Positions 2,447-11,218 of a DNA stretch of 58,911 nt are shown one piece after another. A program made the translations under genes and the position numbers. The notes under the pieces are model-generated. The model did not search any database, was not told the origin of the DNA, and saw nothing but the letters and a program-made list of their open reading frames with translations. The first letter of the stretch is position 1. Each line of letters starts with the position of its first letter. Location: IMG/VR virus record IMGVR_UViG_3300036853_000162, positions 1-58,911 of that record, one strand, 5' to 3'. Source of the DNA: a virus. Lineage: Duplodnaviria > Caudoviricetes.

Positions 2447-3689
2447 TGGATTCCCAACACCGACGAAAAACTTCTTCTCGATGCCTAACAACATTACGGA
2501 CATCATCGCAGAGATCACCAACATGGCGGAGCTCAAGGTGATTATCTACGTCATCCGGCATACGTGGGGCTTTCACGAGTTCGGCAAGCCGAAGGCCATC
2601 AGCGTCGATGAGTTCATGAACGGACGCAGGCGCGATCATGGCAAGTCCCGTATGGACAATGGCACCGGGATGAGCAATCACAGCGTGATCGATGGACTCA
2701 AGAAAGCCGTTGAGCATGGGTACCTCCTCTGCGAGATCGACACCTCGGATATGGCCCGCGTGAAGAAGTCCTATTCCTTAAAGATGGCGGGTGAACAAGT
2801 TGCACCCAGTGAAGATGCTTCACCCCCTGCAAATGTTTCACCGGGTGAAGAAAGTACATCCAGCAGTGAAGCATCTTCACCCAGCTATGAAGAATCTGCA
2901 CATCCGGGTGAAGAACCTGCATACCGATCAGAGAAAGACACTAGTAGAAAGACACTTCAGAAAGACACTGTAGAAAGACAGAGGGACGTATCGGGCGAAA
3001 TTGTCGAACCCGCAGCCTCTGACGCTACCGCGTCACCCGCGCCTCTCTCTTCTCAGGATGTTGCTTATAGCCTGGATGCCCCACAAGCACAGGAAGAACA
3101 GGGTGAGCCAGGGCGGGCGCATGACTATACGCAACCTGAAGATGCGCCGTCCGAAGAGAAGCCTGCCGAGAAGCCGAAGAAGCGCACGCGCACCCCGAAA
3201 GCGCCGAAAGTGGACCCTGCGACGCTCCAACTCTACCGGGATGTTTTCGATGATTGCCGCCGGGAGGCGCTCGCGGATGAAAGTGAGGGGTACGCCCATA
3301 CCGGGGCCAGCGACAAAGAGATCGAGACGTTGCTTGAGGCGAATCGGTCACGTCCTGGCTTCGTGACCCCTCAGCGTCTGCACAAGGTGTATGTTCGCCT
3401 GTGGAACCTCCCACGCGACGAACGCACAGGGTATTACTGGCGTGAGCATATGTCCATCAGGGCCATCTGCCACAACTACGAGGCGCAGCTCACGATCCTC
3501 AAGGTTGAGGCGCAAACGAAGCAGCAGCAGGCGCAAACGACTGAGGCGGATATGAAACGGCAGGTTGCCGAGCGTGTCGCATCGGGCGAGTTGCTCGGTG
3601 GGCGGTATCAGATCAGGTCTGGCGCTGGCCAGCCGCCCATTCACTACATGACTGCCGACGACCGTGCGGCGATTTTCGGAGGAAAGTAA
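2439..3689 (+). CDS. Phage replication initiator (lambda O-like, N-terminal wHTH)
   Basis: AELKVIIYVIRHTWGF N-terminus, low-complexity repeat centre, directly upstream of DnaB. Confidence 0.8.
   Translation: MFDGFPTPTKNFFSMPNNITDIIAEITNMAELKVIIYVIRHTWGFHEFGKPKAISVDEFMNGRRRDHGKSRMDNGTGMSNHSVIDGLKKAVEHGYLLCEIDTSDMARVKKSYSLKMAGEQVAPSEDASPPANVSPGEESTSSSEASSPSYEESAHPGEEPAYRSEKDTSRKTLQKDTVERQRDVSGEIVEPAASDATASPAPLSSQDVAYSLDAPQAQEEQGEPGRAHDYTQPEDAPSEEKPAEKPKKRTRTPKAPKVDPATLQLYRDVFDDCRREALADESEGYAHTGASDKEIETLLEANRSRPGFVTPQRLHKVYVRLWNLPRDERTGYYWREHMSIRAICHNYEAQLTILKVEAQTKQQQAQTTEADMKRQVAERVASGELLGGRYQIRSGAGQPPIHYMTADDRAAIFGGK
2790..2925. repeat. Putative replication-origin iterons within the initiator gene
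   Basis: About 7 degenerate 18-21 bp repeats of GTGAAGA..(T/G)CAC/CAT, some palindromic (GTGAAGATGCTTCAC, GTGAAGCATCTTCAC). Confidence 0.55.
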
Positions 3690-3690
3690 C

Positions 3691-5151
3691 ATGGCTATCG
3701 AGAAAACATTGCCCCATAGCATTGACACCGAACAGTACCTGATTGGGAGCATTCTGTACGACCCCGCATCAGTTGCAGAAGTGGCCGGGATGATCCAACC
3801 GGAAGATTTCTACCGCGATGCTCACCGGACCATTTTTGAGGGCATTCTCGCAATCGATGCGGATCATCAGCCGGTTGATACTCCGGTTCTGTCGGCGTGG
3901 CTGGAAGAGCGCGGCAAACTCGAAGAGATTGGGGGGAGCTTTTATCTGGGTAGTCTTGTGCGCCGGGTTCTCGACGAGTATCTCAATCCGATGCCTGCTG
4001 ACTATGCGCGGATTGTCGTGAACCTCTCGCGAAAGCGCAAGCTGACCCGCATCGCTGGCGAGATTGCGCAACTGGCCATGGATGAGAAAGACAGCGATGC
4101 GGCTATCGCACAAGCAGAGGCGCTCCTGCGTGCCCTGGCACTCGGCAAACGAAGCGGGTACGCCGAGGACATCACCTCAATCACTGAGGAGTATCTCAGC
4201 CGCCTGGAGCGCCTTCAGAAACAGCGCAAACAAGGTCTGGTGGTTGGTGTACCGACGGGATTCGCGGATCTGGATCGGATGACCGGGGGATTGCAGAAAT
4301 CCGATCTGATCACCCTGGCAGCTCGCCCTGGACGCGGCAAAACCGCTCTGGCGCTGACGATTGCCCGCCAGGTAATGCACTTCTGTGGGGAGCTCGGCTA
4401 TCGTACGCTGCTCTTTAGTCTGGAGATGAGCAAGTGGCAACTTGCGCAGCGCCTGCTGTCCCAGGAGAGTGGTGTCAACCAGTCGCAGTTGCGGATGGCG
4501 TGGCTGGAGCAAGACGAGTGGGATGAGGTCGTCCATGCGCAGGATCGGCTCCCCGCTGACCGCCTCTGGGTGGACGATGAGCCAGGGCTGACCGTTGAAG
4601 CGGTGCGCAGCCGGGCTAGACAACACCAAAGCAAGCATGGCCTGGATTTCGTGATTGTGGACTACATGCAGTTGATGACGGCACGGAAAGACGATGGGAG
4701 TGACTATAAAAGCCGCGTGGAGGAAGTCGATCACATCAGCCGCCAGTTGAAGGGGCTGGCACGCGAGCTGGATATCCCGGTCCTGGCATTGGCGCAATTA
4801 TCGCGCGCGGTTGAGCAGCGCGCAGAGAAGATGCCCCAACTTTCGGATTTGCGCGAGAGCGGCGGCATCGAGCAGAACAGCGATATCGTGATGTTTCTCT
4901 ACGAGAATCCAACAGCCGTCCCTAACTACCAGGGGCGCGTCATCGATCTGGTCATTGCGAAGCACCGCAATGGCCCCGAGGGCACCGTACCGCTCTTCTT
5001 CCGCCCGCACCTGACGCGTTTCGAGTCGGTGGATGTCACGATCGCTGAGGAGCCGCCTATGCCACCGAAGCCAGCGCCAACGAGGACCGTACCCGCGCGA
5101 GCAGCGTCCCGCGGCCAACGAGCCTGGAATAGCGACAAGGAGGAAGCATGA
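3691..5151 (+). CDS. dnaB: Replicative DNA helicase
   Basis: LPHS..E N-terminus, GVPTGF.DLD, ARPGRGKT, FSLEM, VDYMQL, LAQLSR, LSDLRESGGIEQ, AKHRNGP. Confidence 0.97.
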   Translation: MAIEKTLPHSIDTEQYLIGSILYDPASVAEVAGMIQPEDFYRDAHRTIFEGILAIDADHQPVDTPVLSAWLEERGKLEEIGGSFYLGSLVRRVLDEYLNPMPADYARIVVNLSRKRKLTRIAGEIAQLAMDEKDSDAAIAQAEALLRALALGKRSGYAEDITSITEEYLSRLERLQKQRKQGLVVGVPTGFADLDRMTGGLQKSDLITLAARPGRGKTALALTIARQVMHFCGELGYRTLLFSLEMSKWQLAQRLLSQESGVNQSQLRMAWLEQDEWDEVVHAQDRLPADRLWVDDEPGLTVEAVRSRARQHQSKHGLDFVIVDYMQLMTARKDDGSDYKSRVEEVDHISRQLKGLARELDIPVLALAQLSRAVEQRAEKMPQLSDLRESGGIEQNSDIVMFLYENPTAVPNYQGRVIDLVIAKHRNGPEGTVPLFFRPHLTRFESVDVTIAEEPPMPPKPAPTRTVPARAASRGQRAWNSDKEEA

Positions 5152-8414: not shown

Positions 8415-9365
8415 ATGTGGAAATTCTTGGCAAATCTTTTGCTGGCCGGGCTCGCTATCGGCCTAACATTCTTCACGGGATCGCGAACGCTGGACCTGCT
8501 GGCCCAATGGCTCCCCGCCAATCAGCAAATCATGCAATACCTCGGGCTGGCCGCGTTTGAGGGAGGGCTCTACTTCTGGGCCCTTTTCTTCGTCACCGCT
8601 GCCAAAGGTGCGGCGCAGCGCGGCATCGCAGTGGGAATGATTGTGGTTTGCTTCATTGCGGTTGCAACCGCAACAGTGGCCGATTTGCTCCTAGTCGGGT
8701 CAGAGTCAGGCAAGCTTCCGAGCATTCAGGGTGAGCAAAAACAGGCCATCGTCGTCTTCGTCGGCATTGTCATCGTGCTCAACGTCGCTGCGTTCCTGGG
8801 CGCCAAACTCTCTCACCCCGACAAGCTCAAGGAAATAGCTATCCAGGATGCTGAGGACCACATCAGCGATATGGAACTGAAGCTCATTAGGCGGCTGGCT
8901 CCTGGCGTCGCTACTCAGATGGCTCCCCTCAAGGCAGAGCAGTGGGTCAATGAGACGTGGGAGCGTATGTTCCCCGGAAGCGAGCAAGCACGTACGATCG
9001 AGGGCAGCATACAGCGTGCCTCTCTCTCATCATCCGCCACTGCGTCTACGCCAACTCCTCCACCCACTCAGCCTAAAAAACGCTGGAATCCATTTAGTCG
9101 CCAGCCAGAGAACGCAGCATCCGCTCCTGTGCAGCAGTCACCAGATCTAAATACGATTTTCCAGGCTTTTCAGGCATGGCAAGCGCAACAGATCTCAGGC
9201 CCGACTATGGCCCCCCGCGCATCGGCCACCGATGAGACGCTTCCGCCGCGCCCTGCCCCTGCTCCAACCACCGAGGACCTCAGCCCTTTGCCAGTGGCCC
9301 CGACCCAGATGGGCAACGGGGCGAGCCAGAATGGGCACCGTCGGAACCCGGACCAGATAGATTAA
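8415..9365 (+). CDS. Four-TM membrane protein with Pro/Ser/Gln-rich tail (short form, 316 aa)
   Basis: AAAGGA RBS and four hydrophobic segments in the first ~130 aa. Confidence 0.8.
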   Translation: MWKFLANLLLAGLAIGLTFFTGSRTLDLLAQWLPANQQIMQYLGLAAFEGGLYFWALFFVTAAKGAAQRGIAVGMIVVCFIAVATATVADLLLVGSESGKLPSIQGEQKQAIVVFVGIVIVLNVAAFLGAKLSHPDKLKEIAIQDAEDHISDMELKLIRRLAPGVATQMAPLKAEQWVNETWERMFPGSEQARTIEGSIQRASLSSSATASTPTPPPTQPKKRWNPFSRQPENAASAPVQQSPDLNTIFQAFQAWQAQQISGPTMAPRASATDETLPPRPAPAPTTEDLSPLPVAPTQMGNGASQNGHRRNPDQID

Positions 9366-9811
9366 GCGACACCAGAGAAGAGAGGAAAAAATTAACGCCC
9401 GCCCCGGAAAAAATTAACGAAAACCCTATCGCCACGTTAATTTTTTCCGGCGGTCAGCCCTCTCCACAGGCGGATTCATCGGAAAAAATGGATTACGACG
9501 GGAGAGACAAGGGAAGACAGCGGAAATTCTACGAGACGATAGCATTATTGGAGATGATGTATGCAGGAGACCCCCGAATCTGGGACCGACTCGACGGACA
9601 GATGCAGCGCTATTATCGACGTGAGTATCCTGAGTACTTCGGGAGAACATCAAAAGCAAAACAAGAGGCAAGGACAGAAAACAGGGTCAAAGCGAGCAGA
9701 ATCAGGCACGAGCGTTTCCAGCGCGAAGCGCGAGCCACCACCACGCTTCCTGGTGACAGACCTGAACCGATTAACCTTTCGGATTGGCGAGAGCGCCTAT
9801 CAGGCGGATGA
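9284..9811 (+). CDS. Predicted -1 frameshift extension of the 8415 protein (includes ORF 9488..9811)
   Basis: In-frame slippery C CCT TTG at 9284-90, hairpin 6 nt downstream, -1 frame stop-free from 9284 to 9811. Confidence 0.65.
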   Translation, partial: PFASGPDPDGQRGEPEWAPSEPGPDRLSDTREERKKLTPAPEKINENPIATLIFSGGQPSPQADSSEKMDYDGRDKGRQRKFYETIALLEMMYAGDPRIWDRLDGQMQRYYRREYPEYFGRTSKAKQEARTENRVKASRIRHERFQREARATTTLPGDRPEPINLSDWRERLSGG

Positions 9812-10015
9812 CACCGATCATACACCCGAGTGGGCGCAGTTCGTCGGAGAACACGCAAACGTGGCGCGGGTCATTGATTGGAGCGACCTCGAAGAGCGGG
9901 TTCACTTCCTGAACATGCTCTTCGCCTATTGCTCTGCTAAGGGGAAGCCGTTTCCTTTGGCTGCTCTGCCAGGGGAAAAATTTAACGAAAAAGCTTAATG
10001 GGCGTTAATTTTTTC
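9385..10015. repeat. Five copies of GAAAAAATTAACG; four form two 13-N15-13 inverted dyads
   Basis: Copies at 9385-97(+), 9407-19(+), 9435-47(-), 9975-87(+, 1 mismatch), 10003-15(-). Confidence 0.9.
9561..9998 (+). CDS. Hypothetical protein (start uncertain, possibly GTG ~9753)
   Basis: Protein-like C-terminal half; the 5' part overlaps the frameshift extension. Confidence 0.45.
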   Translation: MQETPESGTDSTDRCSAIIDVSILSTSGEHQKQNKRQGQKTGSKRAESGTSVSSAKREPPPRFLVTDLNRLTFRIGESAYQADDTDHTPEWAQFVGEHANVARVIDWSDLEERVHFLNMLFAYCSAKGKPFPLAALPGEKFNEKA

Positions 10016-10086
10016 TGGCTTGCAAAGTGGCCTGAGAAGCCGTGCAAGCCAGAAAAAATGTTATCGAAATAAGGGAGAAGGAACCC

Positions 10087-10272
10087 ATGCAGGATCAACA
10101 ACCAGCCCAATCATCAACGAAATGTGACAAATGTGGATCATCCATTTTCAGGATTGGCGAGACCAGGACGGACATCATCTACCAATGCTTTTCCCGACAT
10201 ACGATCTATGTCCAGAAGCAAGGCCAGCATATCCCTGTGCAGGGGACCAAGCCGCCGAATGACGCCGCCTGA
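10087..10272 (+). CDS. Small Zn-ribbon protein
   Basis: CDKCG...YQC...H; AAGGA RBS. Confidence 0.55.
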   Translation: MQDQQPAQSSTKCDKCGSSIFRIGETRTDIIYQCFSRHTIYVQKQGQHIPVQGTKPPNDAA

Positions 10273-10479: not shown

Positions 10480-10995
10480 ATGATTACCCCAACCGAGACA
10501 GTAACCTGGGATAAGAACGGGCACACGGTCGAAATCGTCGTGTCACCCCGCTCTCTGGACATCTCTCTGGATGGCAAGCGCCTTTGCACGACTGGCATGT
10601 TCCAGCCTGCCCCCGCGCATATGAAGGCACAGGGCGCAGTTGCGGTCGCTGGCCCACTCGCTCTGACTCAGGAGCGTCATGATCAGCTTCAGGCAGTGTG
10701 GAATCGCGTGAAGGCGCAACCAGCGCAGTCTGAGCCTATCGACGAATTCTTTAAGCTTGAGGGTGCGTTGATTACAGCACGCGAAGGTGTGCGCACGCAC
10801 ATGGATCGCTCCCACGGCAATCCTGCTCAGGCTTACGCACAAGAGGCCAAGGCCGAGAAAGACCTTCAGGCGTGGATTGATGCTCACCAGGATGATGAGT
10901 CCTACCGCAGTGAGATCGCCCGCCGCAAACGTACTGCGGTGACTTATCAAGAAGCCTATAACTTGTCCCAGGATGGTCGCGGTCAGGATTATTAA
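10480..10995 (+). CDS. Moron hypothetical protein
   Basis: First ORF after the promoter; 171 aa. Confidence 0.75.
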   Translation: MITPTETVTWDKNGHTVEIVVSPRSLDISLDGKRLCTTGMFQPAPAHMKAQGAVAVAGPLALTQERHDQLQAVWNRVKAQPAQSEPIDEFFKLEGALITAREGVRTHMDRSHGNPAQAYAQEAKAEKDLQAWIDAHQDDESYRSEIARRKRTAVTYQEAYNLSQDGRGQDY

Positions 10996-10996
10996 C

Positions 10997-11218
10997 ATGA
11001 AAACCATCGCAGAGTTGGCCCTTGAGTGTGGTGTTCATCGCACCACACTCAATAAATGGGCCGATAAGACCCGCAAGACCAACCCATCAGTCGAGATCGT
11101 GCGTCAATCCGGGCACATCATCCTCATCGATGAGGAATCAGAACAATTCAAACTCTGGCTCGCGGGCACAAAATCCGGTAGACCGCGCAAATCATCTCTC
11201 CCAGCCGCCTCTGAGTAG
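10997..11218 (+). CDS. Small HTH DNA-binding protein
   Basis: TIAELALECGVHRTTLNKWA HTH and C-terminal GRPRK. Confidence 0.75.
   Translation: MKTIAELALECGVHRTTLNKWADKTRKTNPSVEIVRQSGHIILIDEESEQFKLWLAGTKSGRPRKSSLPAASE

Follow-up and report, generated by a model that had tools for sequence, protein, structure and literature searches.

Membrane-protein gene with an open −1 frame

The DNA considered here is the viral record IMGVR_UViG_3300036853_000162 (Duplodnaviria; Caudoviricetes), the whole of which (58,911 nucleotides (nt)) was analyzed and is called the window below; this 58.9-kb record is rated linear and ~71% complete, with a GC content of 56.6%. Our subject is a gene for a membrane protein at 8415–9365, together with the DNA following it as far as 9811, from which a second and longer protein is probably made by programmed −1 ribosomal frameshifting. 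The gene lies among + strand early genes, near those for a C5 cytosine methylase (1469–2446) and a DnaB helicase (3664–5151), and is followed at a distance by large − strand open reading frames (ORFs) that span ~15.9 to 39.4 kb. This location agrees with an earlier note, made by a model from the sequence alone, which had placed the gene outside the tail module.

The ATG at 8415 is preceded by AAGGAAG, and homologues begin at the same Met. The encoded protein of 316 amino acids (aa) is predicted to have four membrane helices followed by two more helices, and its disordered, Pro-rich tail ends in ..ASQNGHRRNPDQID. In the AlphaFold2 (AF2) model, helices span residues 2–32, 38–62, 66–97, 106–132, 135–161 and 163–185, the four long hydrophobic ones falling within residues 2–132. 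Judged by eye with the positive-inside rule, both ends of the protein probably lie in the cytoplasm.

Toward the 3′ end of the gene, the slippery heptamer C CCT TTG that the earlier note had identified is present in phase, and it is the only in-phase heptamer within the 130-nt overlap of the two frames. The upstream GAGG, which resembles a Shine–Dalgarno (SD) sequence, and the hairpin 6 nt downstream were likewise confirmed (Table 1). With respect to the hairpin, the outer stem (GCCCCG, 9297–9302, paired with CGGGGC, 9317–9322) and its position stand as first described, and the inner stem was redrawn as CCC/GGG around a 4-nt loop in place of CCCA/TGGG around a 2-nt loop. The −1 frame is open from 9236 (the prior stop being at 9233) to the stop at 9809–9811 and contains no ATG, GTG or TTG upstream of 9488; the note had correctly reported that it runs without stop or start from 9284 to 9487 and there joins ORF 9488..9811. 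The predicted products are 316 and 465 aa in length, with the junction ..EDLSPL|ASGPDPDG and a predicted trans-frame junction peptide ..EDLSPLASGPDPDG...

The extension that would be read after the shift consists of an acidic, Pro-rich linker of 66 aa (isoelectric point (pI) 4.5) and a basic domain of 107 aa (pI 9.8), so that its original description as an Arg/Lys-rich tail holds for the domain and not for the linker. In the AF2 model of the extension (mean predicted local distance difference test (pLDDT) score 60.6), residues 1–75 are disordered and helices are placed at 76–92, 97–102, 105–114, 124–153 and 165–173. With low overall confidence, the basic domain is predicted to contain a G-R-Q-R arm, three short helices and one long helix.

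Viewed in the window alone, these signals are not exceptional. The hairpin has a fold energy of −17.6 kcal/mol (z −1.80), which is matched by 9 of 200 dinucleotide-shuffled sequences; the 42-nt segment after the heptamer folds at −18.5 kcal/mol, a value reached by 10 of the 755 other segments of the locus. In-phase X XXY YYZ heptamers occur 16 times, C CCT TTG included, in the 6,296 codon positions of 14 window genes, and four of these are of the CCC type. The open −1 frame following C CCT TTG is 175 codons long, and that following every other window heptamer is at most 103. A single in-phase heptamer with a hairpin in GC-rich sequence is by itself within chance, and the significance of the combination comes from its conservation in other loci.

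Conservation of the probable shift site among related loci

DNA encoding the tail domain was collected from seven loci, namely the window and six further loci obtained by alignment-based scans (L021–L024, L025 and L028); all were found through the tail domain and not through their reading frames. The initial scans of viral contigs (with single sequences and alignment A1) and of genome contigs (with A1) gave nothing, and L026, L027, L029, L030 and L031 were dropped as re-fetches of the same contigs. The closest locus, L025, is a 2-kb contig binned in a Gemmatimonadaceae-labelled genome, with 82% identity in the tail; the other five are viral contigs with ~40–47% identity.

At all seven loci, a gene for a multi-helix membrane protein precedes the tail domain, which is encoded in the −1 frame of that gene; this frame is open across the junction, with a two-frame overlap of 10–139 nt. 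An in-phase CCC-type heptamer falls within the overlap at six of the seven (Table 1). The most constrained case is L028, where a −1-frame TAG stands directly before CCC and a zero-frame TAG directly after AAAA; the heptamer is thus the whole overlap and the only possible shift site there. Conservation of the heptamer and of the open −1 frame in homologous loci, which the earlier note had proposed as a check, was therefore observed, and its proposal of two products from one gene is supported by these counts and by the conservation of the start-less stretch as protein.

For each locus, the 42 nt that follow the heptamer were ranked by fold energy against segments of that locus. An unusually stable hairpin, 5–6 nt downstream and with an energy in the lowest 0–3.2%, is present at five of the seven loci. 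Comparison by eye of the L022, L028 and L024 hairpins indicated that both partners differ in 3 of 10 stem pairs and that no pair is broken. The internal SD motif fared differently: it had been counted as part of the signature, and the GAGG does not appear to be conserved among the loci. By eye, similar purine-rich motifs were seen as GGAGGT in L025 (11 nt between it and the heptamer) and as GGGAGG in the plasmid-type locus L010 described below; none was seen upstream of the heptamer in the other loci.

Protein-level conservation extends into the part of the −1 frame that has no start codon. The extension aligns with the −1 products of the six other loci and with three database proteins, and the −1 products align from the slip site on. 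After the slip site, the first canonical −1 start comes at 26 codons in L022, 28 in L028, 51 in L024, 55 in L025, 68 in the window and 94 in L023. A shared segment, ..EPIG.E.N.EPIEI.PP.PYEYP.., directly follows the hairpin in L022, L024 and L028, upstream of any start codon in L024. The ratio of nonsynonymous to synonymous differences per site (pN/pS) in the −1 linker is 0.37–0.47 in all six pairs tested, and for the start-less part of L024 pS is 0.46–0.48 vs a pN of 0.22–0.28. In the tail domain itself, the substitution rate ratio dN/dS between the window and L025 is 0.265.

The three protein-database relatives of the 107-aa ORF (P0177, P0178 and P0179, of 150, 155 and 252 aa) all begin far ahead of the Met matching 9488. 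The ORF has no self-match in that database, though the membrane protein is present there (P0001), which suggests that gene callers miss the start-less, overlapped tail and that the family is under-annotated.

The zero-frame protein also ends in a conserved manner, with S/A-[QS]-N-G-[HRN] located 2–8 residues before the stop at all seven loci and in the database protein P0002. This motif (9342–9356 in the window) occurs in three groups of membrane proteins that are unrelated or remotely related to one another, and it is found within the last 16 residues of 8 of 176 proteins of the membrane-domain family introduced below.

Several observations weigh against a programmed frameshift at this site. 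The window hairpin taken alone is modest (z −1.8), and to our knowledge C CCU UUG lies outside the classic high-efficiency bacterial heptamers. L021 has no heptamer, carrying GAT TTT C (T TTT) at the place homologous to the L023 site, and it has an ATG of its own in the −1 frame. The closest locus, L025, has no hairpin, as the 30-nt stretch that forms it in the window is missing. Over the 111 nt before ATG 9488, the coding signal between the window and L025 is weak, with a dN/dS of 0.54 (the other frames give ~1.5) and third positions accounting for 7 of 17 changes, and the conservation of these 111 nt is due in part to a DNA dyad. The seven loci moreover share descent and do not count as seven separate occurrences. 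In the window, ATG 9488 could in addition give rise to a free tail domain.

This last point leads to an alternative in which the region holds two ordinary genes, the 107-aa protein starting at ATG 9488 and the −1 stretch upstream of it being non-coding regulatory DNA that is stop-less by chance. Such an arrangement would be in keeping with the presence of the ATG, with Met at that place in 9 of 10 aligned sequences, with the weak coding signal just described and with a codon-usage score of 0 to 0.17 for the −1 frame over 9320–9530; a conserved DNA dyad in the stretch can, in addition, mimic protein conservation. It is nonetheless improbable given a −1 relation at every locus and heptamers at six of them, open −1 stretches of 55–163 codons in diverged loci, the constraint on the linker, and indels between loci that leave the frame intact (39 nt in the case of the window and L025). 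Upstream of 9488, moreover, no SD-like motif beyond GGA is found, and the equivalent of Met 9488 is Leu in L024.

A formerly continuous gene carrying a 1-nt error in the contig would also leave two frames joined without a start codon, as after an indel. The same arrangement, however, recurs at six other diverged loci from different records, and a public run that was assembled independently, and that may derive from the same sample, matches 8415–9998 throughout (0 differences, 0 gaps). A second study contributed two short contigs that agree fully with the region wherever they overlap it, the heptamer not being bridged; together with the assembly, they make a sequencing indel unlikely. The conserved zero-frame end motif suggests that zero-frame termination is itself under selection, which likewise speaks against a broken gene, and the tail is in frame in 0 of 176 family proteins, leaving this explanation hardly credible. 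Very unlikely, too, is slippage of RNA polymerase, or use of a non-canonical −1 start codon, in place of ribosomal slippage. The −1 frame does contain ATT or ATC codons at 9413, 9428 and 9440, transcriptional slippage is described for phage and bacterial genes in PMC5009743, and the A AAA AAG/C sites of the plasmid-type relatives contain six A's, where some transcriptional slippage may take place. Against this, the phage-type sites have no homopolymer longer than 3–4 bases, the phase of the heptamer, the 5–6-nt spacer and the hairpin are the signature of ribosomal slippage, and the −1 frame of L028 opens exactly at the heptamer. Taken together, these comparisons favor programmed −1 ribosomal frameshifting in 8415–9365, to which we assign a probability of roughly 85%.

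Table 1. Features of the window and candidate shift sites of related loci; fold-energy ranks refer to the 42 nt after the heptamer
Locus	Feature	Position	Strand	Remarks
Window	Short-form gene	8415..9365	+	Zero frame, 316 aa, stop TAA 9363–9365
Window	SD-like GAGG	9273..9276	+	7 nt between GAGG and heptamer
Window	Slippery heptamer C CCT TTG	9284..9290	+	In phase (AGC CCT TTG; S290 P291 L292); fold-energy rank 1.3%
Window	Candidate stimulatory hairpin	9297..9322	+	6-nt spacer after heptamer
Window	−1-frame extension	9290..9811	+	173 codons + stop, predicted to be read after shift
Window	Three copies of GGAAAAAATTAACG	9384..9448	9384+, 9406+, 9435−	Second and third copies make up a perfect 16-bp dyad within the −1 frame
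Window	Conserved basic C-terminal domain (GRQR..QMQRYYRREYPEYF..)	9488..9811	+	ATG 9488 possible secondary start
Window	Next gene, small acidic protein	9753..9998	+	GTG 9753 likely start; ORF open from ATG 9561
Window	Second GGAAAAAATTAACG dyad	9974..10016		One mismatch per arm; end of next gene
L025	Heptamer C CCT TTA			Fold-energy rank 75%
L023	Heptamer C CCT TTC			Fold-energy rank 15.5%
L024	Heptamer C CCT TTT			TAG directly after; fold-energy rank 0.6%
L022	Heptamer C CCA AAA			TAG directly after; fold-energy rank 1.5%
L028	Heptamer C CCA AAA			TAG directly after; fold-energy rank 0/708 background segments
L021				No heptamer; fold-energy rank 3.2%
L005	−1-type site	5588
L006	−1-type site	2796
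L008	−1-type site	3513
L009	−1-type site	5075
L010	−1-type site	3554
L017	−1-type site	1022
L003	Candidate +1-type site	1038
L004	Candidate +1-type site	3639
L007	Candidate +1-type site	6292
L015	Candidate +1-type site	1753

Relatives on small plasmids, dyads and neighboring genes

The membrane domain of the window protein belongs to a family with 36 close homologues and 443 clusters at E ≤ 0.001. When 134 family members were compared with Pfam, there were 0 matches at E ≤ 0.001, and in the window no match was obtained at E ≤ 10 to DUF2637 (PF10935), with which the earlier note had suggested a comparison. The L025 membrane protein is a probable remote member of the family (hhalign 91%), and those of L021–L024 and L028 are related to one another. 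For these five, membership in the window's family was considered and not accepted: hhalign gave 67% over 23 columns, and BLAST and hidden Markov model (HMM) searches gave nothing. As the membrane domains are not detectably related, the shift module appears to travel with different membrane domains.

Family members are encoded at 19 metagenome loci. Six of these are cut off and were left unscored (L002, L012, L016 and L018–L020), leaving 13 complete genes. Four contigs are circular, with terminal overlaps of 123–139 nt: L003 (6,095 bp), L004 (6,143 bp), L007 (6,581 bp) and L010 (8,824 bp). Both L004 and L010 encode a Rep_1 rolling-circle initiator, which also matches phrog_11698 strongly, along with helix-turn-helix (HTH) regulators; L004 additionally encodes Replic_Relax and L010 an AEP-type primase.

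These relatives reach a C-terminal tail in one of three ways. At 6 of the 13 (L005, L006, L008, L009, L010 and L017), a tail of 48–61 aa with the pattern G-[RK]-x-G-R-[KR]..TG.RP..WT lies in the −1 frame, and its conserved start precedes every start codon of that frame. All six have an in-phase A AAA AAG or A AAA AAC (L017 additionally has C CCT TTA) with a hairpin 3–8 nt downstream, and the window stem GCCCCG/CGGGGC is identical to the stem of L005, which there begins 7 nt after A AAA AAG. At 4 of the 13 (L003, L004, L007 and L015), a zinc ribbon, EHRTCSECG..NAKQLTCS..CR, is encoded in the +1 frame after a conserved and identically phased NCC TTT C, and the whole +1 ORF of L003 and of L004 has no canonical start; these loci are candidates for a +1 (or −2) programmed frameshift. 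The remaining three (L011, L013 and L014) carry the same zinc ribbon as an in-frame fusion, which is found in 9 of 176 family proteins. The G-x-x-G-R-K arm was found in frame in 0 of 179 proteins.

In terms of origin, homology between the plasmid-type and phage-type tails was considered and not established, as hhalign aligned the G-x-x-G-R arm at a probability of 2.2% (P 0.021). For the six plasmid-type tails, Pfam returned chance-level matches alone, and the sole match to PDB profiles was ribosomal protein S15 (E 0.019). Pfam and PHROGs gave nothing for the membrane protein, the phage-type tail or their neighbors. No match to the phage-type tail was found among PDB sequence profiles, none for either AF2 model at E ≤ 0.001 in a Foldseek search of the PDB (tail pLDDT 60.6), and no usable match to the tail in an Atlas search. 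The membrane protein had no match among PLSDB plasmids, and neither it nor the L022 tail had one among INPHARED phages. Across 401 genomes of the phylum to which the L025 genome belongs, the tail profile matched one, the L025 genome itself.

Within the −1 frame of the window and again at the end of the next gene, copies of a 14-nt motif, GGAAAAAATTAACG, are arranged as dyads (Table 1). The window holds five matches to this motif vs 0.10 expected. Folded as RNA, the 9384–9448 dyad reaches −24.3 kcal/mol (z −5.3) and the 9974–10016 dyad −15.6 kcal/mol (z −2.7). The motif is kept at the DNA level in all six other phage-type loci with half-sites spaced by 29 or 50 nt, and this variable spacing preserves the frame. 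The dyads are candidates for the target of the tail. In the reading frame the motif is translated as ..EKIN.. and ..LIFS.., and the two dyads flank the tail domain and the next gene.

The next gene, for a small acidic protein, is conserved at all seven loci, and at its 5′ end it shares 50–53 nt with the end of the tail frame. At six of the seven, the start codon stands 1–2 codons before a conserved D/E-L-x-R-L-T/S-F, and in the window the coding score prefers the frame of this gene from ~9710. A second frameshift into it was set aside on account of these six start codons beside the conserved part. The protein follows the pattern ..DLxRLTF..W.LE.R..F.N.L..C..G..FPL, and both frames are conserved across the overlap. 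Farther downstream, 10042–10272 encodes a 76-aa protein with a zinc-ribbon-like CDKCG.. motif, and 10973–11218 an 81-aa HTH protein whose match to Pfam HTH_3 (E 3e-4) falls short of the threshold.

Known systems and a possible role for the tail

The arrangement is of a familiar kind. In dnaX and the IS3 family, a slippery heptamer, a spacer of 5–8 nt and a downstream hairpin direct the synthesis of two products at a set ratio. The window shares with dnaX the in-phase X XXY YYZ, the spacer, the hairpin and the two products predicted from one gene, and the dnaX heptamer A AAA AAG is the one used by plasmid-type relatives. The differences are that the shifted product of dnaX is the shorter one, whereas the window shift would add 173 residues, that the window gene encodes a membrane protein of an uncharacterized family, and that the phage-type loci have C CCU UUN or C CCA AAA as heptamers. 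An internal SD motif, moreover, does not appear to be conserved.

Programmed frameshifting in phages is textbook knowledge for tail assembly chaperones and is known for a few capsid genes. As in the G/GT chaperones, a −1 shift near the 3′ end of the window gene would add a second domain to a minority of the product, and the shift is kept across phages that have diverged beyond sequence recognition. The window gene, however, lies in an early/replication region near DnaB and the methylase rather than between tail tube and tape-measure genes; it encodes an integral membrane protein, and with Pfam and PHROGs neither the membrane part nor the tail resembled G or GT. A functional analogy, and no more than that, can also be drawn with p16.7 of phi29, a membrane protein that reportedly organizes replicating DNA at the membrane. 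This small protein is likewise encoded among the early/replication genes of a phage, and it has a DNA-binding part in the cytoplasm, as the window protein might; p16.7 is said to differ in having a single membrane helix and no frameshift.

The closest functional analogue appears to be SpdB2, which is encoded by Streptomyces rolling-circle conjugative plasmids and some actinophages and, according to PMC4447253, forms oligomers and binds double-stranded DNA non-specifically. As predicted for the window protein, it has four membrane helices, and both are carried by phages as well as by small rolling-circle plasmids; the basic or zinc-ribbon-like tails of the window family add to the likeness. SpdB_N (PF27080) is also the nearest named language-model neighbor of the window protein, a weak lead with a score of 0.79, below the tool's 0.9 mark. 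Membership in the SpdB family is not supported: the window protein has no DUF2637 match, no FtsK-like TraB was found among the ORFs scanned with Pfam (six in circular L004, four in circular L010), and GC content and source point to non-actinobacterial hosts for the window family. Frameshifting is not reported for spdB in the available part of PMC4447253, and full-text literature searches, together with the part of the review PMC5009743 available to us, yielded no report of programmed frameshifting in phages that involves a membrane protein. On these comparisons, the mechanism appears to be a canonical −1 frameshift cassette, and what appears new is its setting in a membrane protein with interchangeable tails that occurs in phages and on rolling-circle plasmids.

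In the mechanism we envisage, most ribosomes would stop at TAA 9363 and release the 316-aa four-helix membrane protein. A fraction, paused by the hairpin 6 nt downstream, would slip back one base on C CCU UUG and continue in the −1 frame to 9811, giving a 465-aa protein in which the same membrane domain is followed by an acidic linker, disordered and rich in Pro, and then by a basic helical domain. Judging from the loci compared, the shift site, the frame relation and the tail seem to form a conserved module of uncultivated soil phages, and the related membrane family on small rolling-circle plasmids would acquire different tails, basic or of the zinc-ribbon type, through frameshifting or fusion. 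That a tail is reached by −1 shift, in the +1 frame or by in-frame fusion, differing by lineage, argues for the ratio of tailed to untailed subunits as a selected feature.

With respect to function, the charge of the tail, its arm, and the zinc-ribbon or basic tails that replace it in relatives suggest that it binds nucleic acid, against which it must be weighed that Pfam, PHROGs, Foldseek and PDB profiles provided no family, fold or structural match in support. In the cytoplasm, the tail might bind nucleic acid generally or possibly the GGAAAAAATTAACG dyads in its own coding region, and a membrane oligomer with a set minority of tailed subunits might then hold phage or plasmid DNA at the membrane. 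We offer a DNA-tether function tentatively, as a possibility well short of even odds. The narrower proposal, in which the tail is site-specific for the GGAAAAAATTAACG dyads and the frameshift-set minority tethers the phage genome in cis to the membrane, is no likelier.

The start-less, overlapped tail exposes a blind spot of gene callers in annotation. If the tail binds the conserved dyads, the system would offer a model of membrane attachment for small replicons and phage genomes. Such a tether, if real, could serve replication, segregation or cell-to-cell passage, and the plasmid relatives would do likewise with other tails, making this a general "membrane anchor with a dosed DNA hook" outside the actinobacteria.

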